From assembly GCA_947586855.1 (NCBI GenBank), contig CANPXV010000001.1, forward strand, positions 81,350 through 145,349: a DNA stretch of 64,000 bases, in the 5' to 3' direction. This DNA is from an uncultured Clostridia bacterium (lineage in GTDB: Bacteria; Bacillota; Clostridia; Christensenellales; CAG-314). Below are positions 4,864 to 37,955 of this stretch, in pieces. Numbering within the stretch: position 1 is the stretch's first letter; the number at the start of each line of letters is the position of its first letter. Position numbers and translations under genes: made by a program. The notes under the pieces are model-generated. The model was given only the letters and a program-made list of their open reading frames with translations. It did no database searches and was not told the origin of the DNA.

Positions 4864-4940
4864 TGGCGCGCCATAAGGAGCTCGAATCCCTAACCTTTGG
4901 TTCCGTAGACCAACGCTCTATCCAATTGAGCTAAAGGCGC
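4864..4940 (-). tRNA. tRNA-Arg (anticodon ACG), copy 1, with one acceptor-stem mismatch
   Basis: Hand-folded cloverleaf: GCGCCTT-TA-GCTC-AATTGGATA-GAGC-G-TTGGT-CTACGGA-ACCAA-AGGTT-AGGGA-TTCGAGC-TCCTT-ATGGCGC-G-CCA. Acceptor position 6 is a T:T mismatch. Confidence 0.85.
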
Positions 4941-5090: not shown

Positions 5091-5167
5091 TGGCGCGCCA
5101 TAAGGAGCTCGAATCCCTAACCTTTGGTTCCGTAGACCAACGCTCTATCCAATTGAGCTAATGGCGC
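5091..5167 (-). tRNA. tRNA-Arg (anticodon ACG), copy 2, with a perfect acceptor stem and encoded CCA
   Basis: Identical to copy 1 except for the 5' acceptor GCGCCAT, which pairs 7/7 with ATGGCGC. 77 nt. Confidence 0.92.
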
Positions 5168-8546: not shown

Positions 8547-8617
8547 TTTGTCCTCCGTTTGCGCTCCGCTCTGCCGCAGTTTGGGCTGCCCCGCCCCGAG
8601 GGAGAGTGAGCCTTTAT

Positions 8618-8646
8618 ATTGTATTACAAAAAAAATCGTTTGTCAA
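8618..8646 (-). promoter_or_regulatory. candidate nrdD promoter
   Basis: Minus strand reads TTGACA, a 17-nt spacer, then TACAAT. A leader of about 65 nt ends in GGAGGACAAAATG. Confidence 0.5.
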
Positions 8647-8654
8647 CAGCTCAA

Positions 8655-8670
8655 ACACAATATATTGTGT
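8655..8670. promoter_or_regulatory. NrdR-box-like operator 1
   Basis: The perfect 16-bp palindrome ACACAATATATTGTGT matches the published NrdR box consensus acaCwAtATaTwGtgt. Confidence 0.65.
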
Positions 8671-8686
8671 TAGTTTTTCACTTTTG

Positions 8687-8702
8687 ACACAACATATAGT
8701 AT
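8687..8702. promoter_or_regulatory. NrdR-box-like operator 2 (imperfect)
   Basis: ACACAACATATAGTAT lies 32 bp centre-to-centre from box 1, which is the typical tandem-box spacing. Confidence 0.5.
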
Positions 8703-8756
8703 GTCAAACATACCGCTTTGTCTGTCATAGGCGGCGGAAAATGTTGCCGAAAATTG

Positions 8757-22905: not shown

Positions 22906-22948
22906 ACGAGAGCCGCTGCGCTGGTGGGCGCAACGGCGTAGAACTCGT
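22899..22948 (-). terminator. rho-independent terminator after the 2,071-aa lipoprotein gene
   Basis: Minus strand has a long GC hairpin (ACGAG..GCCGTTGCGC-ccacca-GCGCAGCGGC..CTCGT) followed by TTTTTTT. Confidence 0.65.
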
Positions 22949-23024: not shown

Positions 23025-26000
23025 TTAATGTGAGATAGCGTAGTCGCCGATATCCAGAATTGCTCCGAAGTAGGGCGCACCGGCGCTTCCCGATACAGCA
23101 CCTGCCGACAAGTAAATACATACCTTGTTGTTATAAGCGTCCGCAGATTTTCCCATCCAATTTGAGCCAATAAATGTTCTCTGATCTACATCACCCCACG
23201 ATTTTGCACTTGCGGTTACTTTACCTGCTGTCCCAACTTGACTATAATAAGTTGTTATTCCGCTCTCAGTCGGATAGATAGAGTTATCCAGGTCTGTCGC
23301 CAGCCAACTATCGCCCATTTGTGCAAACAACAGATATTTACTTCCGTCTTTTTGTGTTATCTTGCGAGCCGTAGTAGTCAGTGAGTTGTGCATTGCAAAG
23401 GTAACAGGATTGTCACCGTAATCAAAGGTTGTTTTACCCGCTACATCCAGCGTGACCTTATCCTTGCCGTTGATCAAATCGCCGGGGCTGCAAATCATGA
23501 CGGCAATGACATTGAGATATTGGTTTTTGTCCTTATCTGCCGTATTATCGCCCTGGAACGAATGCATTGTGCCGTCTGCTGCTTTGACCCAACGAACAGT
23601 TTTGCCGACCTTGTTGAACAGATCTGTTTCAAGTTTACCACGCAACAGAGAAACAAGTGCAGCTGCATTGTTGGCGTCGTACCAGCTTTCGGCACCGGTT
23701 GCATATGCTTCCAGACGGCATTTGTCCTTGACCGTCAGGGTGGGGCCGCCAGTATCTGCTGTATTATACACGCCGTCGTTTTCAACTCTTTCTCCGTCGC
23801 ACAGGATGAACAACGGGCCGCCGGAGCCGACCATGTCGCAATCTTCAATTACGATGTTGCCACGCCAGGTGTAGACCATGTTGGAGTAGGCGTCGTAGAT
23901 CTTGGAGTGGACAACGTTGAATGCAGTTTGGAGATTGCCATAGTTGTCACCCACGATTGCAGTGAAGAAGTTGTTGGCGTTGATATTTTCGAAGTCGATG
24001 CAAGCATAGGTGTTGGCAAGCATGATTCCGCCGGGGGCAAAGTAGATGGTCTTGCCCTGATCGTAGTAGTCCTTTTGCGGGGTGGAGCCCTTCATGGCGA
24101 TGTTCTTGACCGTGAAGTGGTTGTCCTTGTGACCACGTGTAGAGTCGTTTGTGCCTTCTTTTGTGTTAGACAACAGCTGGAATACGCTCCAATGGGGCAC
24201 AGGGTCGCCGACCTTGGTGCTTGTTTCGTAGTCCACCAAAACTTGCAGCAAACGTCCGCCACGTTCCAAAATGTGTGTGAGGCTGAAATAGTTGCCGGAA
24301 ACGCTCACTTTGCAGGTGGCATAGAAACCTTTTTGCATGTTGAGTCCCAAACCGGTGTCAGGCTGAGTTGCACCGTTGTTCGCAATATCTGCTTTGTGGT
24401 CGAGCACACGGCAGTAGCTATAATATCCGTGTTCGCCGCTTATGACGCCGCTGTTGTCGCCGTCCTTCAACGAGCCGATAAGTTTTTCCTGCTGACGAGG
24501 CCAGCCTGCAAGAGATTGATAAGCCGCATAGTACAGCGGGTCACCCTCTTGCCAGAAGAAATCTTGCGGCATCTGCGTGGGATCCAGGTCGATGTCGTTG
24601 TGGAGAATTACCCAATCGACATTGCCGACATACTCGTACAGATAATTTTCGTCCGCAGCAAGTTTGACGGGGCTTGCGCCTGCCGAAAGCGTAACCGAGC
24701 CATCGTCACTCTGCGTAGCAGTTGCGCCCCACAGCGGTGCCCAAACCTTCTTTTGCAGGTCGTTCATCACGGACAGACCACGTTGGTCGTAGACGTTGTA
24801 GCCGCCCTTGACAAGTTTGAACTCGGCTGTGACCTTGTTCTGTACAGAGGAAGGAATCGAGTAACCACTACTCGTATCGAGCGATACAGTGAGGCGAACA
24901 AATGTGCCGTCTGCGATATCCTCGAACTTGTAGGTGTTGTTGTCTACTTTTACCCAATCACTTGTGTTGCCGCGGGTGAGATTGTGTGTTTTGAGCGAAG
25001 AATTTTCAAACGTTTCGCTCTCTTTGCGGAACTCTACTGTGGCAGTTGTGGTCGGGTTGTAGTCGTAGACAGCGTCAGCACCTTGGGGCTTGATACGTGC
25101 GATGGGACGGAAGATAAACTTGTTGACCGTGCCCACCTCGTAGACTTGATTGAGCTTCTTGAAGTAACCAAGACTGTCGCCCGTGTTGGTGGAGCGTTGC
25201 TTGTAGCTGTTGTAGGAGTCGGGTGCGCTGAACGACATCACGAGACCTTTCAGAGCCTCCTTCGATTCACCAACCAAATACAGGTTGCCCGTGACGGGAG
25301 TGCTAAGGTCGTAGGTTTTGGAGCCATTGTACCAAGTGGTTGCCTTGGCAAGGAAGTTTTTGAGTGCTTCGCTCGACTGTGCAGCAGTATTGAGGCTGGT
25401 GCCACTGCTGATAACGAAGTTTTGGACCTCTCCATTGTAGCTGAGTGTAACCAAATAGGTCACGGTGTTGTCCGCAGTCCATTTTGCATACAAGTGGGTT
25501 TCTGCGGTTACCGTTTTGTTTTCCGTCCATGGGTTACCCCAATCGCCGCCGGTGCCATCCTTGTCCCACCATCCTGCAAAGATGTAGCCGTTGCGTTTGG
25601 GTGTGGGCGGATTGTATTCTCCACCATTGCTTACCTTTGTGGTAAATGTCTCGCTGGCCTCATTGTTGAAGTGCAAAGTGACATTGAATACGTTGCTTGC
25701 GCTTGCGTCTTCTGTCCATTGAGCATAGAGGAACAAGTCGCTATCGATGATGTAGTTTTTTACCTTCTGGGCATCTTCGTTGAGCACAATGGGCCACGGA
25801 GCATGCTTTCCGGAAACAAAGTGATACCAATAGCAGAACGGGTTGTCTGAGGACAAAATCTTTGAGGGATCAAGCAATGCGCCATGCGTGTAGCCGGCTC
25901 TGGTGACAGGTTGAGATTTTGTGTCCAAAATCATCTTAATTTTACCCGTAATTGCCCGCAAATCTCCTACAGCACCTTCTTCATTGCCGCCCAAGTATTT

Positions 26001-29000
26001 CTTGACTATGTCCGTAAGCTTCGCCTTTAAGACTTCTCCCAAATCCGACTCTCCCTCGGCATCATAGTAGTAGCCCAACGAACCCGGCGCCCACGGCCAA
26101 GCAGTTTGCACAAATGACTTAGCTTCATTACCTTTACCCAGGGTGTCGCCTTGTTCTTTGATTTTGTCCAAAATGCCGTTGTAGACCAAGTCATTGATAA
26201 ACGTGGCACCCGTGGGCACTTCTGCGCCAATATTGGGTTGGCCGTTGCCCAGAATGATGTTTACACGGACGGAGTGATTCCACTTGGCGTAGAGGGTGAT
26301 TGCGATCTCTGCGTTATCCGGTTTTGCCTCGATAGTTTCCTTTTTGGTGGCGTCGGTTTGGTTTTCTTTGTCGCTGTACCAACCGGCAAACACGTAGCCC
26401 TTCAATGTGGGGACGTGCTCGGAGAGGTCCACCACGGTGCCCCAATCGACAAACAAACGCTCGGACTCGTCCATCAGGTTGTAGTCCAAAACGATTGTGA
26501 CCGTGCGGACTTGCCAATGAGCGTAGAAGTACTTGTAGCCGGGAACGTCGCCGACAGAGTAGTTGCCGTCCTGGGCGTTGCCGCCGATTTGATCGTCGAA
26601 CCAGCCGAGGAATTTGTTACCCTTGGCAAATTCGGCGTAGTAGTCTGCTCGTTCGAGTTGCGACTTCACATCACTGATCGAGATTTGCTTGTTGACATCG
26701 ACAGTTACCGTGATGACATGGTAGGCTGTAACTTCACTGTCGACATCTTCGATACCGGTGGAGAAGTAGACGGTAACTTGGCCCACCCACTTGGCGTAGA
26801 GGGTGACGTTGGCGTTGCCGATTGTGACTTGGTTGTCGCTGAATTTGTGGCCTTCGGTGCAACTCTCGTCGGTGTACCAGCCGTCGAACTTGTAGTTTTC
26901 ACGATCGATAGTTTCGGGAATATTTACTTTCTCGCCGCTGTAAAGGCCCTTTTCGCTGCCGCTCTTGTCTGTTACAACAGTGTCGTCTTGGCCGTCGAAG
27001 TTCCAATCGAATGTGACGGTGTACTTTGTCAACTCGGAATAGCGAGCGTACAGGTTGACGTCGGTTTCGCCAACTGTTTGATTTGTCCACTGTTCGCCGG
27101 CGGACTCATCGGTGAACCAGCCGTCGAATTTGTAACCACGGTTGGGGGTTACTTGGGGCAGGGTGAGCGTGTCGCCCTGGTTGACGGTGACGTTGTCGCT
27201 GCCGCTCAAGGAGCCGTTGGTGCCCACATGATAGGTTACTTTGCGAGGTATGGAGGCCTCGTTCCACTTGGCATACAGCGTCATATCGGCTGTGACAGGC
27301 GTTGTGTTTTCCCACTTGGTGCCTTCTTCTGTCTTGCCGTCCTTGGTGTACCAGCCGGCAAACGTATATTGTTTGTTGTCGGACTCGGGACGGCTGACGT
27401 TGGCGGGCAGCGTGATAGTGCCGTTGATGTCTACCGTTTGAGAGTCGGGGCCGTCCTTGGCGCCCTCGTAGTTGAGGTCGAACTTGACTGTGACTTGCTG
27501 CACCCACTTGGCGTACAGGGTGGTGTTGCCCGTTGTGGTTGTTGTTGCGCTCCACTTGGTTGTGTCAAGGGCGTCGCCCGTCTTGGTGTACCAGCCGTCG
27601 AAGCGGTAGCCTTGACGAGTGGGGTCGGTGGGCCAATTGTTTGCGCCCAGAGATTGTCCCTTATCCACCGTTACGGGGTCGTGAGGGGTGCCATCTGCGC
27701 CGTTGAGGTCGAAGGTGACGGTTGCCGTCTCTACCCAGCGGGCGTAGAGCGTTTTGTCGGTGGCAATGGCCGTGTTGGCGGTGTATTGTGTGCCGCCCTC
27801 GGTTTGCTCGTCGTACCAACCCACAAAGCGGTGATTTGCCCAAGAAGGATCGGCAGGCCAATTCTGTCCGAGAGTTGCGCCCTCGTTGACTGTCTTTTCG
27901 AGGTTATCCGTACCGTTGCCGTTGTAGTCGAAGGTGACAGTGACGGTTTTGTGCGACCAGTGCGCATAGTAGGTGACGTTTTGCGTGACGGGCGTGTTGG
28001 CGTCAACTTGCGTGCCGTTTGTTCTGTCGGTAAACCAACCCGCAAAGGTGTAGTGCTCGGGGGCCTTGTCGGTGCCGGCGGGCAGCTTGTCGCCGAGGGT
28101 TGTGTGCTCGTCGATGTTGTCGAACACCACCACTACATTGTCGGGGTTTTGGCCTGCGGGATAGTTGTAGTTGAATGTGACTGTGGCCTTGGTGACAATC
28201 CATCTGGCGTACAGGTTGTAGGTGTTTTCCGTGGCCGGGGTGGTGGCAAGCCATTTGTCGCCCCATTGGCCGTCGGTTGTGCCGTTTTTGGTGTACCAAC
28301 CGTCAAAACGATAGCCTTCGCGAGCGTCGGGTGTGGGCAGCTTGTCGCCCAAAGATTGACCCTTTTCTACCTTGGCGCTGATATCGGTGTGATCGCCGTC
28401 ATCAAGATAGAAGAATTGGAAGTTGGAGTAAGCGATGGCCGTCCACTTTGCGTAGAGGTTGAGGTTGCCCGTGACAAGGTCGTCCTCGTCCCATTGCTCG
28501 CCCCAATCGTCGTCGGTGCCATCCTTGGTGTACCAACCGTCAAAGTGATAGTCCTCTCTGGTGGGCTCGGTGGGGAATGTTACCGTGCTGCCGGCGTCGA
28601 CAGTTTTGTGCTCGACCTGAGAGCCGTTGTTGAATGCAACGTCGAATTGAACTTTGGCATTTTCTGTCCAGCGGGCGTACAGGTGCAGGTTCTCGTTGAC
28701 GGTCATATCCGCCGTCCACTTGGTGCCCCAAGCGCTGTCCTCGGTGGAGGTGCCGCCGTTGACCGTGTACCAACCGCCAAACGTGTGGTTGGTGTAGCCG
28801 GGCGTGGTAAGCTGGATCTTGTTGCCCTTTTCCACGCTGTACGAGTAGTCCGCCGTGGCGCCGTCGTTATAGTGCAGGGTGACGGTTACCTGGTTGGAGG
28901 GCTGAACGTCCCTGACCTTGACGGTGATGTTTACAACGCAGGATTTGCCGCCGTAGGTGACGGTGTAGGACGTTGCGCCCTCTTTGGAAAGGTCGGCTGT

Positions 29001-29240
29001 GGTGTGTGTAGCACCCCACTCTTTTACCGTTTTGGTGACGGGGTCGCCTTCCTCGAAGGTAACTTTCAGTTTAAGATTGTCGTAATCAATTACATTGTTG
29101 TCGCCGAGATAGAACTCTGTCTGGGCGTCAACGACTTCGATCTTTGTGACAACCTCATCCTTGCTGCACGCCGCAATTGTGGGCAACACAAATGCGATGA
29201 GCATGACAAGCGCAATCAAAAGTGAAAGCCTTTTTTTCAT
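23025..29240 (-). CDS. 2,071-aa surface lipoprotein with 12 Listeria-Bacteroides-type repeats and a large non-repeat C-terminal region
   Basis: Signal peptide MKKRLSLLIALVMLIAFVLPTIAAC (lipobox IAAC). There are 12 modules of the type Y-x-F-x-G-W-[YF]-T...L-Y-A-[KR]-W. The last ~850 aa are non-repetitive. Confidence 0.9.
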   Translation of the reverse strand: MKKRLSLLIALVMLIAFVLPTIAACSKDEVVTKIEVVDAQTEFYLGDNNVIDYDNLKLKVTFEEGDPVTKTVKEWGATHTTADLSKEGATSYTVTYGGKSCVVNITVKVRDVQPSNQVTVTLHYNDGATADYSYSVEKGNKIQLTTPGYTNHTFGGWYTVNGGTSTEDSAWGTKWTADMTVNENLHLYARWTENAKVQFDVAFNNGSQVEHKTVDAGSTVTFPTEPTREDYHFDGWYTKDGTDDDWGEQWDEDDLVTGNLNLYAKWTAIAYSNFQFFYLDDGDHTDISAKVEKGQSLGDKLPTPDAREGYRFDGWYTKNGTTDGQWGDKWLATTPATENTYNLYARWIVTKATVTFNYNYPAGQNPDNVVVVFDNIDEHTTLGDKLPAGTDKAPEHYTFAGWFTDRTNGTQVDANTPVTQNVTYYAHWSHKTVTVTFDYNGNGTDNLEKTVNEGATLGQNWPADPSWANHRFVGWYDEQTEGGTQYTANTAIATDKTLYARWVETATVTFDLNGADGTPHDPVTVDKGQSLGANNWPTDPTRQGYRFDGWYTKTGDALDTTKWSATTTTTGNTTLYAKWVQQVTVKFDLNYEGAKDGPDSQTVDINGTITLPANVSRPESDNKQYTFAGWYTKDGKTEEGTKWENTTPVTADMTLYAKWNEASIPRKVTYHVGTNGSLSGSDNVTVNQGDTLTLPQVTPNRGYKFDGWFTDESAGEQWTNQTVGETDVNLYARYSELTKYTVTFDWNFDGQDDTVVTDKSGSEKGLYSGEKVNIPETIDRENYKFDGWYTDESCTEGHKFSDNQVTIGNANVTLYAKWVGQVTVYFSTGIEDVDSEVTAYHVITVTVDVNKQISISDVKSQLERADYYAEFAKGNKFLGWFDDQIGGNAQDGNYSVGDVPGYKYFYAHWQVRTVTIVLDYNLMDESERLFVDWGTVVDLSEHVPTLKGYVFAGWYSDKENQTDATKKETIEAKPDNAEIAITLYAKWNHSVRVNIILGNGQPNIGAEVPTGATFINDLVYNGILDKIKEQGDTLGKGNEAKSFVQTAWPWAPGSLGYYYDAEGESDLGEVLKAKLTDIVKKYLGGNEEGAVGDLRAITGKIKMILDTKSQPVTRAGYTHGALLDPSKILSSDNPFCYWYHFVSGKHAPWPIVLNEDAQKVKNYIIDSDLFLYAQWTEDASASNVFNVTLHFNNEASETFTTKVSNGGEYNPPTPKRNGYIFAGWWDKDGTGGDWGNPWTENKTVTAETHLYAKWTADNTVTYLVTLSYNGEVQNFVISSGTSLNTAAQSSEALKNFLAKATTWYNGSKTYDLSTPVTGNLYLVGESKEALKGLVMSFSAPDSYNSYKQRSTNTGDSLGYFKKLNQVYEVGTVNKFIFRPIARIKPQGADAVYDYNPTTTATVEFRKESETFENSSLKTHNLTRGNTSDWVKVDNNTYKFEDIADGTFVRLTVSLDTSSGYSIPSSVQNKVTAEFKLVKGGYNVYDQRGLSVMNDLQKKVWAPLWGATATQSDDGSVTLSAGASPVKLAADENYLYEYVGNVDWVILHNDIDLDPTQMPQDFFWQEGDPLYYAAYQSLAGWPRQQEKLIGSLKDGDNSGVISGEHGYYSYCRVLDHKADIANNGATQPDTGLGLNMQKGFYATCKVSVSGNYFSLTHILERGGRLLQVLVDYETSTKVGDPVPHWSVFQLLSNTKEGTNDSTRGHKDNHFTVKNIAMKGSTPQKDYYDQGKTIYFAPGGIMLANTYACIDFENINANNFFTAIVGDNYGNLQTAFNVVHSKIYDAYSNMVYTWRGNIVIEDCDMVGSGGPLFILCDGERVENDGVYNTADTGGPTLTVKDKCRLEAYATGAESWYDANNAAALVSLLRGKLETDLFNKVGKTVRWVKAADGTMHSFQGDNTADKDKNQYLNVIAVMICSPGDLINGKDKVTLDVAGKTTFDYGDNPVTFAMHNSLTTTARKITQKDGSKYLLFAQMGDSWLATDLDNSIYPTESGITTYYSQVGTAGKVTASAKSWGDVDQRTFIGSNWMGKSADAYNNKVCIYLSAGAVSGSAGAPYFGAILDIGDYAISH

Positions 29241-29319: not shown

Positions 29320-29829
29320 TCAGTTGCCGAAGAAGTAGGGGCGCAGGTCGCTGCCGATGACGTTGATCCACAGATATGTGATTGCGCTGCCCGCCGCCTG
29401 ATCGGTGGCACTGTACTCCAAGCGGATGGAGCACAAATCGTCAGGGGCGATGTTTTTGAAGGTGATGGTGAACCGATCGTCCACCTCGAAATAGGGGCAA
29501 TCGTCGTGCTCGTAGGAGTCGCCGTAGAGAATCTTGATATCCACGTTTTTTTCGGTGGCGTCTGCCGGATTGAAACCGTATCCGACAAACACCGTCATGT
29601 TTTCCTCGTAGGGCAGGTAGATGGCCTTGCCGTTTTCCTCGTCCACCACTCTATTGATGAGGTCGCCCTGAAAATCGGGGTCTTTGAGGTTGGTGACGAT
29701 GGAATTGAAGTAGATTTCCTCGATGGGGATGCGTTCCTCGACGGGCACGCTGCGCATACCAAACAATCCCACCGCCAGCACGGAGCCGACAAACACTATG
29801 AAAACGATCAGGATGGTAGATTTTTTCAT
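29320..29829 (-). CDS. 169-aa hypothetical protein with an N-terminal membrane anchor
   Basis: GGAGGA 7 nt upstream. N-terminal helix ILIVFIVFVGSVLAVGLFG. Its ATG lies 3 nt after the permease stop. Confidence 0.7.
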   Translation of the reverse strand: MKKSTILIVFIVFVGSVLAVGLFGMRSVPVEERIPIEEIYFNSIVTNLKDPDFQGDLINRVVDEENGKAIYLPYEENMTVFVGYGFNPADATEKNVDIKILYGDSYEHDDCPYFEVDDRFTITFKNIAPDDLCSIRLEYSATDQAAGSAITYLWINVIGSDLRPYFFGN

Positions 29830-29832
29830 GCG

Positions 29833-31539
29833 TCAGTCCTCCACAAAGTACAGCTTGCAACGGGTGATATACAGGTATATCCTCACCGCAAGGAACACGA
29901 CCGCCACCGCCAAGGCCTTTACCAACGCCGCCATTGTGGGCGTCAGAGAGGAAATGACCAGGCCGCCGATATCGGATAGCAGATAGTACATCGCCGCAAA
30001 CAGCGCCGCCAGCAAAAAGCCTACCAGCGTTGCGTTGCGCTCGTTGGGACTGTCGAACTGCACACCAACCGTCTGGTATTGGTCGGCGTAGTTGTGCATG
30101 ACGTCCATTTCCGCACACCACAGCAGGTGCGCCTCGCCCACAAACAGCGTGATAAAGCACATTGCCGTGATCTCTTGCAGGGTGGCGCTATCCACGGCGC
30201 CGTGCCCTATCGACAGTGCCTCTATGTAGGCCACCTGCACCAATGCGGTGGACAAAAACACCGTCACCGCACGCACCGCTATGCGCCCAAACAACGTGTA
30301 GATGGGCTTTTGCGGACGGGTTTTGAGGATGTTGCGGGCTGCGCCCTCCCTGCTGTACACCGAGGCGAAGGCGTTGTTGAAGGCCAGCGTCATCACCAAC
30401 ATCACCAGCAAGCTGAATGTTTTGGTCATCACATAGCCGGAGTAGTTGGTGTTCATGGCCGCATACAGCCTGTTTTGGAAGAAGATGGCTATTGCGGGCA
30501 GCACCAGCTGCACAAAGCATCCCACAATGTAGGTTGTGCTGCGCATGTTCATCTGCAACGACTCTACAAAGGGAGAGATTTTGCGCTTGTGCACGTGGTT
30601 TTGCTTGGCCTTGACAGTGCGCTTGTCAAACTCGAACTGCTTGGAGGCCATCTTGATGAACATGGGCCTTGCGCAAAGGAATGATGCGCCGAGAAGTACC
30701 GTCAAGCCGGCAAAAAGCACGCCAAAGGTGGCAAAGGTTGCGCCCACAAAGATGTTGGAGGCGATCAGCAGCGTGCCGCCCACCATCATGGTGGTCAGGC
30801 GATAGTAGGGGTAGGAATACACAGAGAATTTTTGCAAAAAATCCTGTATCGCCACAAAAATGCTGCCCCATTGCCCCAAAATGTTGATGTTGTTGGGTAT
30901 CATGCCTATCAGGCGCACCAACAGAAAGGCTATCGTGCCCGCACCTGCCAACGCCAACACGGCCTGCAACCACTTGAAGCGTCCCACAAACACGCCCACA
31001 TACAGGGCGGGTATGGACAAGATGGCGGCAATGGCCACGGGCACCATCGATACAAACAAAAAGCACAACAGCAACCAGGGGTAGTAGTACCACACGGCGC
31101 CGTTTATCATGCCGTAGGCGATAAATATGGGCAACGTGAGGCCGATGTTCTTTTTTAGCTCGAAAATGTAGTACAGTATCAGCTTGGAGATGTACACGCA
31201 GGTGCTGCTGACGGGCAAGGTGAGCAGCACTTTGTTATCCGCCGTCATGTACAGCGTTTGCGTGAGGCCCACGGTGCAGGTGACAATGGACATCAGCTGG
31301 ATGACCGTGAACAAGATGTTGACTACCGAGTCGGGAATGACGCCCGACGGACGGAAGATGGACAACATGTTGCACACCATAAACAGCACAAAGAAGATGG
31401 CCACGGCCACCACCATTTTGATGATGGCCAGCACCACTTTGATGATGGTAGAACGCACGCTGCGGATAAAGGACAGATCCAACTTGTCCCGCAGCTGCAT
31501 CATCACAAGCGTTTTGAGATTGCGCAAATAGACTTTCAC
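29833..31539 (-). CDS. 568-aa polytopic membrane protein, putative permease partner of the upstream ABC ATPase
   Basis: GTG start overlapping the ABC gene stop (GTGA). Many hydrophobic segments throughout. No soluble domain recognised. Confidence 0.75.
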   Translation of the reverse strand: MKVYLRNLKTLVMMQLRDKLDLSFIRSVRSTIIKVVLAIIKMVVAVAIFFVLFMVCNMLSIFRPSGVIPDSVVNILFTVIQLMSIVTCTVGLTQTLYMTADNKVLLTLPVSSTCVYISKLILYYIFELKKNIGLTLPIFIAYGMINGAVWYYYPWLLLCFLFVSMVPVAIAAILSIPALYVGVFVGRFKWLQAVLALAGAGTIAFLLVRLIGMIPNNINILGQWGSIFVAIQDFLQKFSVYSYPYYRLTTMMVGGTLLIASNIFVGATFATFGVLFAGLTVLLGASFLCARPMFIKMASKQFEFDKRTVKAKQNHVHKRKISPFVESLQMNMRSTTYIVGCFVQLVLPAIAIFFQNRLYAAMNTNYSGYVMTKTFSLLVMLVMTLAFNNAFASVYSREGAARNILKTRPQKPIYTLFGRIAVRAVTVFLSTALVQVAYIEALSIGHGAVDSATLQEITAMCFITLFVGEAHLLWCAEMDVMHNYADQYQTVGVQFDSPNERNATLVGFLLAALFAAMYYLLSDIGGLVISSLTPTMAALVKALAVAVVFLAVRIYLYITRCKLYFVED

Positions 31540-33842
31540 CGATTGGCCTCCGCGTCCTTGCGACGTTTGCTGCGTTTCTCCTTGGAGGGCTTGGCGCCGC
31601 CCTCACCGCCTGATGTGCCGCCCTCGACGGGTATCGGCTCCACCTCGCTGCCGTTGATGACGGACATGTAGAATTGTTCCAGACTCTGGCCGGAGGCCTC
31701 CATCTCGTGCACGTCACGCACGCATTGGATCTGACCCTTGCGGATGATGGCTATGCGGTCGCAGATACGCTCCACCACGTCGATGATGTGGCTGCTGAAA
31801 AACACAATGTTGCCCGCCTCGGCGTGCTCCCTCATGCACTCCTTCACCTGAAAGATGCTGTTGGGGTCCAGACCGGTGAGCGGTTCGTCCAAGATCCACA
31901 CCTTGGGGTTGTGGATGAGCGCCGACATTATCGTAACTTTTTGCTTCATTCCGTGCGAGAAGGTGCGGATGGGGTTGTCCAGCGCAGCGGTCAGTTCAAA
32001 ACGCTCCGCCATGCGAGAAAGCCTCTCGTCACGATCCTGTTTGGACACCTCGTACAAATCGGCGATGTAGTTGATATACTCACGTGCTGTCAGCCGCTCG
32101 TACAGTGCGTAGTGGTCGGGCACAAAGCCTATTTGGCGCTTGGCCATGACGGATTGCGTTGCTACGTCGTAGCCGCACACCTCGATGGCACCCTCGGTGA
32201 TGGTCTGTATGCCCACGATGCTCTTGATGATGGTGGATTTGCCTGCGCCGTTGGGGCCCAAAAAGCCGTAAATCTCGCCGCCGCACACTTCCAGATCGGC
32301 GTCCTTGACGGCATAGACGTCACTGCTGCCGTAGCGCTTGGTAAATTTTTTGAGAACGAGTTTGTTTGCGTTTTCCATGTTCATTGGCTCCTCGATGCTT
32401 CTGCCTGCCAGCTTGACCTCCAAGGCAAGCCTGTCGGCATGTATTTTTTTGTTGCGTTCCACAATATCCAACCAGCCCGCAGCGGCGTTGTAGCCCAATT
32501 CGTAGATGAACCACATGCCGAACGCAAAGCCGTAGTACACAATAAGAAACAAAAACTGATACAGCGGATAGAAGATGAATTTCAGTTCTCCTATGCTGAA
32601 ACTCCACACAAAGTTGCGGGTGTCCCTTGCCCACTGACCAAGTTTGTCCACTATGAAGTCACTGTTGAGGAAGAAGTAGTCTACGCTGGCATTGTAGTTG
32701 GTAAACCAGGCGTTTACTATCAACATCAACACAAAGTACACCGAAAACCCTATCATGCTGTACTTGAATTCCTTCAAGCGGGGGCGGCGGAATATGCCCA
32801 GCCCCACCACCAACAGCGGCATAAAGAACGCTTGATAGTGGTTCATGTAGAACAGCCATATGCTGATGCCGAGAATGCTGATACCCTCGTTGTAGTTGGG
32901 CATTATCATCGCCAAAAATGCGCCCAACACGTTGATAAAGTAGGTAAAGTAGAAAAACTTTTTCCACTTGAATGTGAGGCACAGCGGCGTGATGTACATG
33001 GCGGTGTTGCACAAGTGCAAGGGCAGCGCCGTCACCCAGCTGGGGCCGAAGAAATCGGCAAAACGGTGGTAAAAACTGAAATTGAGCAGGCCCAGCCAGG
33101 CGTAGTACATCATGGCAAAACGCTTGGTGTCCATAGGCTTGTCTCTCAGCAGCACAAACAGCACGATGGGTATGATGATCGCAGGATACAGTATCATGCG
33201 GTGGTAGATGTTGAAATCGTGCGGGTTCATGGTAAACTTGTTCGGGTCGGACATCACCTGCAAGCCGTAGCTGGGGAATGCGGCAAACAGGCAGCCCACC
33301 ACCGCCAACGCAAACCATATCCACTCCTTTTTGCGCAAAATGACCTTGTCAAGATTGACAACGGTGTACACAACGCAGAAGCCCAAACCAAGGCCCGTTT
33401 CCAACCCGATAAGCATGGCTCGGACGTCAAACGTTTGCAGGGCCTCGCCGCCCGTGATGGCCAGCACGTGGCCGGGAAACATCACCGTGTTAAACACAAA
33501 TATGGGCAGCGCAACGTATGCGATCAGCGCAGGCAGCGTGCGCACCTTGAAGAAGGGCGCCAACACCACCAACATCTCCGCTGCGTAGGCAAACCACACC
33601 TGAAACAACGCCACCGTGATCAGCTCCTTGGAGCCGATAGTGTCGTTGGGTTGCCTGTTGATCATGTTGGCAATGACGTCCTGTCCCAACATATAGCGGA
33701 AGAACAACGCCGTCGCCAACAACAACGAAAATGTTTTTAGTGCGATGTTTAGTTTTGTCGGAAGTTTTTTGTTGAGCACCAACCCAACTGCGATAACCGC
33801 CGCAGCGCCTGCCGCACCGACCAGATAGTAGACTGCTGTCAT
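31536..33842 (-). CDS. 768-aa fusion of an N-terminal polytopic membrane domain (~470 aa) with a C-terminal ABC ATPase
   Basis: AAGGAGAGG SD. NBD motifs GPNGAGKST, FSHGMKQKV, VWILDEP and FFSSHI. Gly-rich then Lys/Arg-rich C-terminal tail. Confidence 0.9.
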   Translation of the reverse strand: MTAVYYLVGAAGAAAVIAVGLVLNKKLPTKLNIALKTFSLLLATALFFRYMLGQDVIANMINRQPNDTIGSKELITVALFQVWFAYAAEMLVVLAPFFKVRTLPALIAYVALPIFVFNTVMFPGHVLAITGGEALQTFDVRAMLIGLETGLGLGFCVVYTVVNLDKVILRKKEWIWFALAVVGCLFAAFPSYGLQVMSDPNKFTMNPHDFNIYHRMILYPAIIIPIVLFVLLRDKPMDTKRFAMMYYAWLGLLNFSFYHRFADFFGPSWVTALPLHLCNTAMYITPLCLTFKWKKFFYFTYFINVLGAFLAMIMPNYNEGISILGISIWLFYMNHYQAFFMPLLVVGLGIFRRPRLKEFKYSMIGFSVYFVLMLIVNAWFTNYNASVDYFFLNSDFIVDKLGQWARDTRNFVWSFSIGELKFIFYPLYQFLFLIVYYGFAFGMWFIYELGYNAAAGWLDIVERNKKIHADRLALEVKLAGRSIEEPMNMENANKLVLKKFTKRYGSSDVYAVKDADLEVCGGEIYGFLGPNGAGKSTIIKSIVGIQTITEGAIEVCGYDVATQSVMAKRQIGFVPDHYALYERLTAREYINYIADLYEVSKQDRDERLSRMAERFELTAALDNPIRTFSHGMKQKVTIMSALIHNPKVWILDEPLTGLDPNSIFQVKECMREHAEAGNIVFFSSHIIDVVERICDRIAIIRKGQIQCVRDVHEMEASGQSLEQFYMSVINGSEVEPIPVEGGTSGGEGGAKPSKEKRSKRRKDAEANR

Positions 33843-34022: not shown

Positions 34023-34490
34023 TCAGGACAAAAAACAAACCTTGTGTCGGTAGGATACCGCCGCACAAAGTTTGTTGCTAACGCAAAAATCATCGCCGCA
34101 AACATATTTGCAGTTTGCACCGATGAATTGCGAACTATGCGCCGCATTGGACGACGTGATAACCCACGTCGAAACACACCACAGCGCAACAAAAATGAGA
34201 CCTAACAGGCTATATTGGGCATACCCCCCCCCGTGGCGAATTTGCTCAAACGCAAAAACTATGCCTCGCTCCAACAGGCGCACGGTTTGGGGCGTGACGA
34301 TGGACGAATTGTGCTCTACGTCCTTCATCACAAGGCTCAGCAACAACAGCAACAAAAACATAGCAAGAAAACTGACAGCCTTGCACAGGCAGCTGCCGAG
34401 TTTTTCTACCTTGATCTGCAATGATTGCGAGCGCTCGTTTTGGATTATGCGAGAGCCGTAAACAAATTTGTGCATTTTTGCCACGTCCAT
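34023..34490 (-). CDS. doubtful 155-codon ORF (two hydrophobic segments) containing a G9 tract
   Basis: It is the only sizeable ORF downstream of the 34610-34637 promoter. It has no SD and atypical composition, so it may not be coding. Confidence 0.2.
   Translation of the reverse strand: MDVAKMHKFVYGSRIIQNERSQSLQIKVEKLGSCLCKAVSFLAMFLLLLLLSLVMKDVEHNSSIVTPQTVRLLERGIVFAFEQIRHGGGYAQYSLLGLIFVALWCVSTWVITSSNAAHSSQFIGANCKYVCGDDFCVSNKLCAAVSYRHKVCFLS
34224..34232. repeat. homopolymer tract C9 (G9 on minus strand)
   Basis: Direct read: 9 consecutive c. On the minus strand this encodes HGGGY in the doubtful ORF. Confidence 0.95.
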
Positions 34491-34495
34491 TGCCG

Positions 34496-34579
34496 AAAAT
34501 TTGGGGGTTTGCCCTCAAACTTGGGGATTTTGACCTCAAATTCGGAAATTTGCGCCCAAATTCGAGATTTTTCTCCCCC
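34496..34579 (-). repeat. four phased direct repeats of 20-22 nt
   Basis: Minus strand reads GGGGGAGAAAAATCTCGAATTT / GGGCGCAAATTTCCGAATTT / GAGGTCAAAATCCCCAAGTTT / GAGGGCAAACCCCCAAATTTT, lying immediately downstream of the predicted TSS. Confidence 0.75.
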
Positions 34580-34609
34580 GAAAAGTTAAAATCACACTTT
34601 GACGACATA

Positions 34610-34637
34610 ATTATAAACCTTTTGTACAATTTGTCAA
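34610..34637 (-). promoter_or_regulatory. consensus sigma70-type promoter inside the coding-poor island
   Basis: Minus strand reads TTGACA, a 16-nt spacer, then TATAAT. Confidence 0.6.
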
Positions 34638-35174: not shown

Positions 35175-37955
35175 TTATTGTTTGTTGTCATCATCCAATT
35201 CGTCTTTTTCCGTTTCCTCGACGGTCTTGGATGTCACAAACAGACCGGGGGCAATTTCTATCGGGGCAGAGTTGTCTTCTTCTGTCTTGGCCTTGCCTTG
35301 GTCGAAAATAGCTTCGTCGGCGGCAAACTTGATGTCTCGCTTGGCAAGTCCTTTCTTTATCAGCTCCACAATGCCTTCGTAGGGCATGTAGTAGTCTTCT
35401 GCCTCTCGCTCGATACGCTCGATGCCCATCCGTTCCATTGCCATTGCAACAAGCTCAACTGCGTACTTGGCACGCTTGCCGCTCTTGATACGATACATGG
35501 CGGGGGTATCAAAGTTGGACGGAGTGTCGGAGACATCTTCCAGTTGATACTTGCTATCCACAAACTCTGTCACGTCCAACGGCAGGAAGAGGCACAGCGT
35601 CTTGCCGCGGAAGGACAATTTTGCAACGACGATCTTGCCCACCTTGAAGGTCTCGCGCTTCCAGCTCATGCGGCACTTGGACTTTTTGTAATTGAGTATC
35701 TCGTTCTTGATGTCGTTATACCAGAATTTGACATCATCTTCCGACTGGATCAACCTTGCGGTAAAGCTGCGATCGTAGCGCAATCTGCCGGCTTCCACCG
35801 ACTCCTCCTCGATGATGATGGGCTCGCGCTGCTTGCGCTCCTCCTCGGGCAGGGCAACAACGTTGATACGGTAGCCGACCGTTCTGTCCTGATACACTAC
35901 CGAAACAGTGGGAGAGCCTTCCTTGTCCATATCGGGCGGCAACACAGTGTAGTCCTGCACCTCCTCGGTGAAAGGCTCGGCATTGTAGCTGGCGGTAACC
36001 ACCAATCCGTCGTGATTGAGGGCGTCGCCCACAAAGAATTCCTTTTGCACGTTGTCGGTGTTGAGGGACAGCGAAACAAGCTCGCGAATCACCCGTTCGG
36101 GCACTTCGGGCACCTCGGTTGCGGCGACTTCTTTTTCCGTTTCCTCGACGGTCTTGGATGTCACAAACAGACCGGGGGCAATTTCTATCGGGGCAGAGTT
36201 GTCTTCTTCTGTCTTGGCCTTGCCTTGGTCGAAAATAGCTTCGTCGGCGGCAAACTTGATGTCTCGCTTGGCAAGTCCTTTCTTTATCAGCTCCACAATG
36301 CCTTCGTAGGGCATGTAGTAGTCTTCTGCCTCTCGCTCGATACGCTCGATGCCCATCCGTTCCATTGCCATTGCAACAAGCTCAACTGCGTACTTGGCAC
36401 GCTTGCCGCTCTTGATACGATACATGGCGGGGGTATCAAAGTTGGACGGAGTGTCGGAGACATCTTCCAGTTGATACTTGCTATCCACAAACTCTGTCAC
36501 GTCCAACGGCAGGAAGAGGCACAGCGTCTTGCCGCGGAAGGACAATTTTGCAACGACGATCTTGCCCACCTTGAAGGTCTCGCGCTTCCAGCTCATGCGG
36601 CACTTGGACTTTTTGTAATTGAGTATCTCGTTCTTGATGTCGTTATACCAGAATTTGACATCATCTTCCGACTGGATCAACCTTGCGGTAAAGCTGCGAT
36701 CGTATCGCAATCTGCCGGCCTCGACCGATTCTTCCTCGATGATGATGGGCTCGCGCTGCTTGCGCTCCTCCTCGGTGAGCTCGCTGACGGAAATTGTGTA
36801 GTATGCGGTTTGACCGTCAAATTTGACGGCAACTTCCTTGTCGCCCGCAACGGACATATCCGGCTTGATCACATAGCAACCGACCAACTCATTTTCGGCG
36901 GTGATATGGTCGTACAGCTGCTGATCGACAACGGCAAACTCCGCAACGGTTTCGCTTGTGGGGTCAAGATCGTATTGAGCGTTGATCACAAGGCCGTTAC
37001 AATCGAATTCATCGCCCTCAGTAAACTGACATCTTACGGCCGCAAGGTCCAAGGTGACGCCCACAAGTTTGCGCTCGGCAGGTTCTTCTTGCGGCTGAAC
37101 GTCCTCTTCTTTGGAGGAAACAACGATCATGTACATGGCCGATTTATCCTTGTAGCAAACAGTGACGGCAGGCTTGCCCTCTTGCGACAGGTCGGGAAGG
37201 ATGACATAGCAATCGTCGGTATCCTTTTCGGAAAGGGCAGCATACTCTTCCGCAGAGAGGAGGCTGAACTCGATAATAGTTTCGGCAAGGGGTTCCTCGC
37301 TGTAGTTGGCGGTAACCATCAGGCCGTCGCAATTGAACTCGTCGCCAACGACGAAATCCCGTTGCACCACTTCCAGATTGAGGTCCAACCCCACAAGAGT
37401 ACGCACGGAATCCGTTTCCTGCACGGGCGTCTCGACGACAACGGGTGCAACGACGGGTGCGGGAGCTTCTTCGTGCTCGCCCACGGAAATGACGTACAGC
37501 GCTTGCTGTCCCTGGTAGCACACCGTAACAGACACCTTGCCCTCGACGGATGTGTCGGGATAGAGCGCATAGCACACGTCCAGAGGGCCTTTTTCCTGAA
37601 GCATTTCCAGAGTTTCGGGTGTGAACACCGCCACCTTGGAGATAGGTTCGGACATGGGGTCCAGATTGTAGTTTGCCGTTACTACCAGCCCGTCGCAGTT
37701 GAACTGCTCGCCCACATCGAACGTGCGCTTGACCATGGATAGGTCGAGAGTCAGTCCGGTGAGTATACGTTCGCTGGGCTTGGTGTCGACGACGATTTTG
37801 TTGGTGCCGACACGCTTGATAAGTATTGCAAAGACAAGTACCATAAACATTATCAATGCAACTTGCACAATCAAAAGCCAAAACAGTGCGCTTTCGAGAG
37901 GCCAATCGAATTCCCAATTGAAGATCTTCATTTTGTCTGACAACAGATTAAACAT
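35175..37955 (-). CDS. 926-aa membrane-anchored protein: TM, three Ig-like (Big_3-like) modules, domain X, a fourth Ig-like module, domain X again
   Basis: N-terminal helix LFWLLIVQVALIMFMVLVFAILI. The ~95-aa modules follow L.G[LV].L....V...F..G[DE].F[ND]C.GL.VTA.Y...P. Two copies of a ~210-aa Lys/Glu-rich domain (RLRYDRSFTARLIQSEDDVKFWYNDIKNEILNYKK..). The start lies 20 nt after the giant ORF stop. Confidence 0.85.
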   Translation of the reverse strand: MFNLLSDKMKIFNWEFDWPLESALFWLLIVQVALIMFMVLVFAILIKRVGTNKIVVDTKPSERILTGLTLDLSMVKRTFDVGEQFNCDGLVVTANYNLDPMSEPISKVAVFTPETLEMLQEKGPLDVCYALYPDTSVEGKVSVTVCYQGQQALYVISVGEHEEAPAPVVAPVVVETPVQETDSVRTLVGLDLNLEVVQRDFVVGDEFNCDGLMVTANYSEEPLAETIIEFSLLSAEEYAALSEKDTDDCYVILPDLSQEGKPAVTVCYKDKSAMYMIVVSSKEEDVQPQEEPAERKLVGVTLDLAAVRCQFTEGDEFDCNGLVINAQYDLDPTSETVAEFAVVDQQLYDHITAENELVGCYVIKPDMSVAGDKEVAVKFDGQTAYYTISVSELTEEERKQREPIIIEEESVEAGRLRYDRSFTARLIQSEDDVKFWYNDIKNEILNYKKSKCRMSWKRETFKVGKIVVAKLSFRGKTLCLFLPLDVTEFVDSKYQLEDVSDTPSNFDTPAMYRIKSGKRAKYAVELVAMAMERMGIERIEREAEDYYMPYEGIVELIKKGLAKRDIKFAADEAIFDQGKAKTEEDNSAPIEIAPGLFVTSKTVEETEKEVAATEVPEVPERVIRELVSLSLNTDNVQKEFFVGDALNHDGLVVTASYNAEPFTEEVQDYTVLPPDMDKEGSPTVSVVYQDRTVGYRINVVALPEEERKQREPIIIEEESVEAGRLRYDRSFTARLIQSEDDVKFWYNDIKNEILNYKKSKCRMSWKRETFKVGKIVVAKLSFRGKTLCLFLPLDVTEFVDSKYQLEDVSDTPSNFDTPAMYRIKSGKRAKYAVELVAMAMERMGIERIEREAEDYYMPYEGIVELIKKGLAKRDIKFAADEAIFDQGKAKTEEDNSAPIEIAPGLFVTSKTVEETEKDELDDDNKQ
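35203..35848. repeat. intragenic duplication, copy 1 (C-terminal domain X)
   Basis: Positions 35203-35777 are identical base for base to 36130-36704 (575 bp). The next 71 bp carry 5 mismatches. The offset is exactly 927 bp (309 codons). Confidence 0.95.
36130..36775. repeat. intragenic duplication, copy 2 (internal domain X)
   Basis: See copy 1; aligned by direct reading of both stretches. Confidence 0.95.

Follow-up and report, generated by a model that had tools for sequence, protein, structure and literature searches.

ATGY proteins, a superfamily comprising AIG1/ADTRP, TMEM164, GPC1, YwaF and YpjA, carry a nucleophile (Cys, Ser or Thr) in helix 2 and an invariant His in helix 4, which in human TMEM164 are C123 and H181, placed on core helices 2 and 4 and 58 residues apart (bioRxiv 10.1101/2022.07.06.498872). 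One member of the superfamily, the Bacillus lipoprotein N-acetyltransferase LhaT (YpjA), works at the outer face of the membrane with acetyl-heptaprenylglycerol as the donor, and the route by which this lipid-linked donor crosses the membrane was left explicitly unresolved (PMC12345273). Here we describe a gene from an uncultured Clostridia bacterium (Christensenellales, CAG-314) that joins a predicted domain of this superfamily to the ATPase of an ATP-binding cassette (ABC) transporter in a single 768-aa polypeptide, together with the conserved gene cassette to which it belongs. The gene lies in a stretch of 64,000 nucleotides (GenBank assembly GCA_947586855.1, contig CANPXV010000001.1, positions 81,350 to 145,349 of the forward strand), hereafter the window, whose first letter is position 1. 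Whereas canonical ATGY members are stand-alone proteins of around 235 aa, this fusion adds seven N-terminal helices and a C-terminal ABC ATPase. To our knowledge, no activity has been assigned to YwaF-type bacterial proteins, and LhaT is the only characterised bacterial ATGY enzyme; LhaT, however, represents another branch (DUF1405) and has no linked transporter.

The fusion gene (31536-33842; like all the operon features given below, on the minus strand) is followed by a gene for a 568-aa permease (29833-31539), a gene for a small anchored protein of 169 aa (29320-29829), and a gene for a lipoprotein of 2,071 aa (23025-29240). The TGA stop of the fusion gene and the GTG start of the permease gene share the letters GTGA (AATCGGTGAAAGTC; also CGGTGAAAG), only 3 nt separate the permease gene from the 169-aa gene (TGA-CGC-ATG on direct reading), and the lipoprotein gene starts 79 nt after the latter. 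A first-pass annotation, made from the letters alone, had described these four packed genes with their overlap, their gap and their lipoprotein, and reading the open reading frames (ORFs) and junctions gave the same picture throughout. A chance-ORF origin can be dismissed, since the exact 768-, 568- and 169-aa products are annotated in public assemblies and homologues of each product are numerous, their genes being arranged in the same way at other loci.

The ~470-aa membrane part of the fusion had been taken for the membrane domain of a transporter, an assignment that has to be replaced. In Pfam, the 768-aa protein matches TMEM164 (PF14808) at residues 221-404, with 66 bits against a cut-off of 25 (E 4.5e-18; profile positions 15-198 of 217), and ABC_tran (PF00005) at residues 513-655, and more than 100 homologues combine both profiles in one polypeptide. 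Judged by these profile matches, the membrane part is a TMEM164/YwaF-family enzyme-like domain and not a transporter domain. An AlphaFold2 model of the fusion, built from 37 homologues, has a mean predicted local distance difference test score (pLDDT) of 80, with values above 90 across most of the first 200 residues, and places thirteen membrane helices in the ~470-aa membrane domain. Helices 8-13 (residues 237-258, 277-291, 294-313, 326-347, 356-380 and 426-450) align with full-length PF14808 proteins of 231-248 aa and delimit a six-helix TMEM164/YwaF (ATGY) core (residues 236-450; 32493-33137). The likeness to the ATGY proteins thus comprises the PF14808 match at residues ~236-450, a six-helix core, a helix-2 nucleophile and a helix-4 His. 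In the databases, the fusion goes under the labels "YwaF family protein", "ABC-2 type transport system ATP-binding protein" and "EcsA".

The two residues in question are the putative catalytic Cys278 (codon 33009-33011), within the motif LPLHLCN at the start of core helix 2, its outer end, and His335 (codon 32838-32840), within the motif NHYQAFFMP in the outer half of core helix 4. Both are invariant in all aligned members, whether fused, split, stand-alone or canonical: in 37 fused proteins, in 14 unfused relatives of 450-500 aa, and in canonical members of 231-248 aa, which PF14808 covers over their full length (E 1e-22 to 1e-44); split and stand-alone relatives match this profile at 68-81 bits. 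Among the 37 proteins, which reach down to 58% identity, some 40 further positions of the membrane domain are invariant along with the dyad. The invariance of the dyad, its location on core helices 2 and 4, and its spacing of 57 residues, against 58 in human TMEM164, argue for catalytic competence.

Since the nucleotide-binding domain (NBD) must be cytoplasmic, and the loops then alternate as expected from the positive-inside rule (16.0 Lys+Arg per loop inside against 6.2 outside), the N-terminus of the fusion is predicted to lie outside. This deduced topology would place both Cys278 and His335 within the outer-leaflet half of the bilayer. A predicted outer-leaflet site, as proposed for LhaT, and a lipoprotein genetically linked in the cassette are what this system would share with LhaT.

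The seven-helix N-terminal extension (residues 1-235; 33138-33842), delimited from the AlphaFold2 model and from hydropathy, matched nothing in Pfam or the PDB in sequence and profile searches. It was considered as a second copy of the ATGY core, a possibility ruled out by the lack of significant similarity between them (E 0.79). Invariant within the extension are R49, W83, the membrane-embedded E148 and H214/R215. E148 (33399-33401) belongs to helix 5 of the extension and to the motif LETGLG, which reads LEL in the unfused relatives. PDB searches with the membrane domain, as a single sequence and as a profile, retrieved nothing useful, and a Foldseek search with the whole fusion model was swamped by NBD matches; taken together, PDB searches with the membrane domain, the permease and the C-terminal module of the lipoprotein returned only an immunoglobulin (Ig) domain and composition-driven matches to cytochrome oxidase helices.

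Beyond the core, a K/R-rich linker (residues 451-493; 32364-32492) extends the last membrane helix as a long cytoplasmic helix, modelled as a single helix from residue 426 to 478 running towards the NBD. The NBD itself (residues 494-735; 31638-32363; PF00005, E 2e-28) carries all four motifs that the first-pass annotation had picked out, namely the Walker A GPNGAGKST (529-537), the signature SHGMKQ (629-634), the Walker B VWILDEP (648-654) and SSHI (683-686). The catalytic E653, the D-loop TGLDP and the H-loop H685 complete a set of catalytic motifs that are all invariant, and D576-H577 (32112-32117), which stand in place of the usual Q-loop Gln, are likewise invariant, also in the ATPases of the split form described below. 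The protein ends, as had been noticed, in a Gly-rich and then Lys/Arg-rich tail (residues 736-768 plus stop; 31536-31637; GGTSGGEGGAKPSKEKRSKRRK), which is modelled as disordered (pLDDT <50) and varies across relatives.

The resemblance of the NBD to DrrA/ABC-2 ATPases, also proposed at first sight, is supported: its best NCBIfam match is the DrrA subfamily, with an E-value of 2e-60 and a score below the cut-off. The scores against their cut-offs were 204.6/312 for DrrA, 199.5/403 for GldA, 147.6/310 for galliderm_ABC and 140/521 for NodI, so that equivalog membership was rejected for DrrA, GldA, lantibiotic protection and NodI alike. The closest solved sequences are those of the phospholipid transporters ABCA3/4/7/1, followed by bacterial ABC-2 ATPases. 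With the ABC-2/type V-like exporters (DrrAB, NodIJ, TarGH, ABCA), the system shares an NBD of related sequence and a translationally coupled, separate gene for a polytopic permease. However, its NCBIfam matches are all below the cut-off, its permease belongs to a family with no characterised or solved member, and its ATPase bears an enzyme-like membrane domain.

That permease, the 568-aa protein, matches PF16949 (uncharacterised 'ABC_tran_2') with 48.6 bits against a cut-off of 25.7, only its first half being covered, and the same profile is matched by 22 of 23 members of its family. It had been counted as a "second" permease; given the identity of the fused membrane domain, on profile grounds it is the only recognisable permease of the cassette. 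Family-averaged hydropathy and charge reveal two conserved, K/R-rich cytoplasmic segments (1-36 and 292-342, very basic), each followed by around six hydrophobic stretches, a pattern that suggests two halves in one chain. No solved relative was found in the PDB by sequence or profile, and no match to LolC/E/FtsX-type families was obtained.

An ABC transporter working together with an intramembrane enzyme recalls EcsAB and RasP of Bacillus, and the orthologue of Acholeplasma oculi is named 'EcsA' by NCBI. In contrast to EcsAB, the cassette has no EcsB (PF05975) match (none at E up to 5 for the permease, and none up to 1 across the 23 members), no EcsC and no third Ecs-like gene, and its putative enzyme is covalently fused and of the acyltransferase type instead of a protease. 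Nor is the structural match distinctive: EcsA in a RasP-EcsA model is the top Foldseek match of the NBD, but it is no better than dozens of other NBDs. Membership in the GldAFG, DrrAB, lantibiotic-immunity and EcsAB systems was rejected on curated thresholds or on missing partners. As no equivalog threshold was reached, no EcsB-type permease was found, and a full-text literature search retrieved no paper on this fusion or cassette, what we describe appears to be an undescribed enzyme-transporter fusion within a conserved four- to five-gene cassette built, by sequence, from known families.

Of the two remaining products, the 169-aa protein consists of a single N-terminal hydrophobic anchor, according to hydropathy, and one Ig-like (Big_2-like) domain placed outside the cell. 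In the 2,071-aa protein, a lipobox (MKKRLSLLIALVMLIAFVLPTIAA-C25; LPTIAA-C25) is combined with a membrane-proximal Ig-like domain, 11 Flg_new (Listeria-Bacteroides) repeats and a C-terminal module of ~740 aa (residues ~1331-2071; 23025-25250). This C-module, which has conserved Asp, Glu, His and Arg positions and matched no Pfam or PDB entry by sequence, is the part that all the cassette partners conserve, their length being in most cases only ~770-900 aa. A pattern search found a lipobox-like motif in 60 of 64 cassette partners and in both of those from Mollicutes.

A search for the same cassette elsewhere, suggested in the first-pass annotation, found it in Clostridia and in Mollicutes. In a scan of one genome per GTDB species, the fusion was encoded in at least 240 species, mainly Christensenellales; gene order was counted in 80 species loci, wherever the sequence sufficed. 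These best 80 loci all come from metagenome-assembled genomes (MAGs) of gut or rumen Clostridia, mostly labelled Christensenellales, Christensenellaceae or Borkfalkia, and the four genes (for the fusion, the permease, the small Ig-like anchored protein and the lipoprotein) follow one another in this order in essentially all of them. Downstream (3') of the fusion, the permease was present in 72 of 72 loci, the small protein in 63 of 70 and the lipoprotein in 57 of 58, in keeping with the idea that the genes, lipoprotein included, form one unit; most of the small-protein misses are artefacts of ORF selection, as BLAST finds the gene. In the flanks examined, which vary by clade, the genes are of the housekeeping type (metG, tilS, M14 peptidase, rsmA, ssb/rpsR/rpsF, hydrogenase subunits, cysK), genes for biosynthesis or for bacteriocins being absent.

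The ~470-aa membrane-domain family is small, with 267 representatives at 50% identity among 1.84 billion proteins, both fused and unfused. That an ATPase of this type is normally a separate polypeptide, as had been remarked, is borne out within the family itself: the unfused membrane-domain gene is, in eight metagenome loci, directly followed by a separate ATPase gene whose product is 49-56% identical to the NBD. The four of these split loci that are long enough continue with a full-length permease homologue (E 1e-69 to 1e-78) and then with an anchored Ig-like protein. The hidden Markov model of the 169-aa family finds these anchored proteins, of 300 aa, with E-values of 2e-11 to 2e-6, and the representative from locus L095 matches Pfam Big_2.

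Outside Clostridia, the fused form was found in Acholeplasmatales and Izemoplasmatales, among them the cultured Acholeplasma oculi. Here the fusion gene is followed, in this order, by genes for a PF16949 permease (matching the Clostridial profile with E 1e-88 to 1e-94), a 148-aa anchored protein (a homologue of the 169-aa protein, E 5e-8) and a lipobox protein. In A. oculi and in an Izemoplasmatales-like MAG, this fourth gene encodes a lipobox protein of 2,050 aa or 3,317 aa with Flg_new repeats, and in the MAG, where the gene is complete, the C-terminal region of the product matches the Clostridial C-module (E 1e-14, filters off). Since Mollicutes have no cell wall, the target of the cassette would be membrane-associated and not peptidoglycan.

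Complete cassettes in tandem were seen in two loci, L052 (1201-8000 and 9902-16579) and likewise L067; as their fusion proteins are only ~37-39% and 51-52% identical to the protein of the window, they represent old paralogues and not recent copies.

A fifth gene probably belongs to the conserved unit. Around 180 nt upstream of the fusion gene lies a gene for a small two-helix protein (34023-34475, a public gene call of 150 aa; 155 aa if read from the ATG at 34490), which has two hydrophobic helices and ends in a conserved tail, ...SYRHKVCFLS, at its extreme C-terminus. A two-helix ORF directly precedes the fusion gene in about 35 of 70 loci. These proteins are widely divergent in sequence and have related tails at the extreme C-terminus: one clade shows ...[Y/F][K/R]xx[V/I]xFL[S/A/N], a second one ...K[F/L]LC. 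The gene is absent from the split and Mollicute cassettes. The tail is predicted to be cytoplasmic and may have a role in NBD docking or regulation.

Upstream of this small ORF, a consensus scan found a promoter-like site, TTGACA-16-TATAAT (34610-34637), with 12 of 12 consensus positions, which is the likely start of the operon; its likely end would be a terminator-like hairpin with a T-run (22912-22937), a pattern match located ~85 nt past the stop of the lipoprotein gene. In the leader that separates the promoter-like site from the small ORF (34500-34590) stand three imperfect tandem units of ~17 nt, cgaatttgggcgcaaa / cgaatttgaggtcaaaa / ccaagtttgagggcaaac, with no Rfam match. Over the whole window, Rfam detected only two tRNAs and nothing within the operon.

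We tentatively favour, while granting it somewhat less than even chances, a single membrane complex in which an ATP-driven floppase for a lipid or acyl donor is coupled to an outer-leaflet Cys-His transacylase acting on or with the cognate lipoprotein. We infer its topology, stoichiometry, direction of transport, acyl-transfer chemistry and substrate as follows. The five genes, encoding the two-helix protein, the fusion, the permease, the anchored Ig-like protein and the lipoprotein, would be transcribed as one operon and their products would assemble into one complex. The two-half PF16949 permease would be energised by the NBDs of two copies of the fusion, which would bring two 13-helix TMEM164/YwaF-type domains beside it, and with them two outward-facing Cys-His sites by the transport pathway. 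Using ATP, the ABC part would carry a lipid, or an acyl donor or acceptor linked to a lipid, across from the inner leaflet to the outer one, or else extract it from the membrane. An acyl group would then be loaded on Cys278 as a thioester and handed on, at the outer face, to an acceptor, for which the lipid anchor or the N-terminus of the co-encoded surface lipoprotein would be the most economical choice, with the small Ig-like protein serving as an extracellular adaptor.

Several observations point in this direction. The GTGA overlap, the occurrence of the fusion in two distant lineages and the gene order of the split form argue for a functional coupling of the enzyme-like domain to the ABC part. 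The ABCA phospholipid transporters and bacterial ABC-2 ATPases as nearest solved relatives of the NBD, together with DrrA as its best NCBIfam match, suggest a transporter of the lipid type. Partnership with the lipoprotein is supported by its presence in 57 of the 58 loci, by the lipobox in 60 of 64 partners and by the similar fourth gene of the Mollicutes. LhaT, which acts on lipoproteins outside the cell with a lipid-linked donor, offers a precedent for acylation. As a functional analogy only, the proposal also recalls MprF, a lysyl-phosphatidylglycerol synthase fused to a flippase, where a lipid-modifying enzyme and lipid translocation are likewise combined in one polypeptide. However, the enzyme of MprF is cytoplasmic and its flippase is not an ABC transporter, whereas the enzyme of the cassette would lie within the membrane and face outwards, and ATP would drive the translocation; by sequence the two are unrelated.

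Other facts weigh against this interpretation. The C-module of the lipoprotein was undetected in the split cassette, which may make the lipoprotein a partner and not the substrate. ABC genes are absent from the vicinity of many stand-alone 13-helix relatives, from which it follows that the enzyme has no intrinsic need for a transporter; the gene neighbourhoods of these relatives were uninformative. The predicted TM-score (pTM) of the fusion model, 0.62, leaves the arrangement of the domains uncertain, and a comparison of the two permease halves with hhalign was non-significant (E 0.44), the two-half idea thus depending on patterns of charge and conservation only. A machine dedicated to a single lipoprotein would be unusual, and ATGY enzymes include hydrolases (AIG1/ADTRP), so that hydrolysis instead of transfer is possible.

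A rather unlikely alternative would place the cassette in a glycolipid or lipoglycan pathway, where an ABC-2-like part exports a lipid-anchored glycan, as in TarGH or Wzm-Wzt, the ATGY domain O- or trans-acylates it outside, and a beta-helix-like module of the lipoprotein binds or trims it. Type V/ABC-2 exporters commonly carry lipid-linked polymers, which fits the lineage of the NBD, and Acholeplasmas are known for their membrane lipoglycans. In addition, the only structural hints for the C-module, modelled by AlphaFold2 with a pTM of 0.89, are Foldseek matches to beta-helix polysaccharide enzymes (pectate lyase, isopullulanase and alginate epimerase folds). However, these matches are marginal (best E 1e-3, TM-score 0.15-0.2), and a function as a lyase was not adopted for the C-module. 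At locus L152, from a Mollicute-type MAG, the fusion gene is immediately preceded by a UDP-galactopyranose mutase gene (7606-8733), and GT2 and GH3 genes are close by, but the mutase neighbour was found in one locus only, and among the variable housekeeping flanks no glycosyltransferase or sugar-nucleotide gene is conserved beside the cassette.

We give little credence to a role in the release or turnover of lipoproteins, where the ATGY domain would act as an AIG1/ADTRP-like esterase that deacylates the anchor or a lipid and the ABC part would extract the product, be it by Lol-like extraction or shedding, or by clearing products as proposed for EcsAB with RasP. The conserved lipoprotein partner, the hydrolases within the superfamily and the EcsA model at the top of the Foldseek ranking would all agree with such a role. 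Against it, the EcsA match does not stand out among dozens of NBD matches, the permease matches neither EcsB nor the LolC/E/FtsX-type families, and the Cys nucleophile corresponds to the state found in TMEM164, a transferase.

It is very improbable that the cassette encodes an ordinary ABC-2 exporter of a small molecule, peptide or antibiotic, in which the N-terminal domain would be an accessory or regulatory anchor and the lipoprotein would be unrelated. The sub-threshold NBD matches to the DrrA, lantibiotic-protection and NodI models agree with this view, and a drug or peptide substrate is possible for a permease of the uncharacterised PF16949 family. Yet no characterised drug or bacteriocin-immunity system, a prospect raised in the first-pass annotation, was matched at a curated NCBIfam threshold, and the surroundings are of a housekeeping type. 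The lipoprotein and the anchored protein, moreover, are retained from Clostridia to Mollicutes, and the invariance of the dyad and of ~40 membrane-domain positions, extending for the dyad to far more distant relatives, is not expected of a passive anchor.

Finally, mechanotransmission of the FtsEX or MacB type, with ATP hydrolysis switching an enzyme in the C-module through the anchored protein while the ATGY domain senses the state of the lipids, seems highly improbable: an anchored Ig-like protein and a large lipoprotein are always co-encoded, and the conserved Asp, Glu, His and Arg of the C-module are compatible with an enzyme, but the extracellular loops of the permease are short by hydropathy, with no periplasmic domain or Pfam match of the FtsX/MacB type, and nothing links the NBD to the type VII family.

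As for the rest of the window, a single ORF of 8,642 aa (37976-63904, minus strand) lies upstream of the operon region. Its product is a giant surface protein with many repeat modules of ~100 aa, whose hydrophobic anchor lies near the C-terminus, ahead of a basic tail (...FALIFIRRRKGNKKQRTK). Between it and the operon lies the gene for a 926-aa anchored protein with Big_3-like domains (35175-37955, minus strand), which contains a perfect direct repeat of 575 nt (35203-35777 and 36130-36704, 927 nt apart), so that ~190 aa are duplicated exactly. Either the duplication is very recent or the repeat is an artefact of the assembly; the 926-aa product is annotated identically in two other public contigs. 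A functional tie to adjacent large surface proteins, contemplated at the outset, does not extend to these two giant neighbours, which are not conserved with the cassette. The low-coordinate half of the window contains housekeeping genes (tilS, M14 peptidase, prfA, prmC-like and parts of a methionine ABC importer), and the two tRNA genes lie at 4867-4940 and 5094-5167 on the minus strand.

Returning to the complex of lipid floppase and transacylase that we favour, its most specific version would be an as yet unrecognised, ATP-powered system of extracytoplasmic acylation, in which a lipid acyl donor, flopped by the ABC part, would serve the fused Cys-His ATGY enzyme to acylate surface lipoproteins at their N-terminus or anchor. 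In this precise form we hold it to be doubtful, with a small chance of being correct. It would bring the cassette, where an acyltransferase-like gene belongs to a lipoprotein operon, close to the non-Lnt systems (LnsAB, Lit, Lnb, LhaT) that modify lipoprotein N-termini in Firmicutes and Mollicutes; those systems, however, have no ABC transporter, and lipoprotein modification by the cassette is only a proposal. According to Serebryakova 2011, as cited in PMC4398514, the lipoproteins of Acholeplasma laidlawii are N-acylated even though no lnt homologue is present. If true, such a system would provide the first function for the bacterial YwaF branch and the Lnt-independent N-acyltransferase that is still missing for Acholeplasma-type Mollicutes and for some Clostridia, and it would show how high-energy acyl donors are delivered across the membrane.

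The natural fusion, like its split form, strongly hints, in the manner of a "Rosetta stone", that TMEM164/YwaF proteins can work with an active lipid transporter, a hint kept from gut Christensenellales to wall-less Mollicutes, with the fusion always accompanied by the same kind of surface lipoprotein. Its relevance would reach to extracytoplasmic acylation, to the remodelling of lipoprotein anchors (and thereby TLR2 recognition of gut commensals) and to the function of PF16949 permeases. Bacterial YwaF/TMEM164-type proteins are widespread, and the cassette, which is carried by the cultured Acholeplasma oculi and thus usable for tests, offers a compact genetic system for their study.

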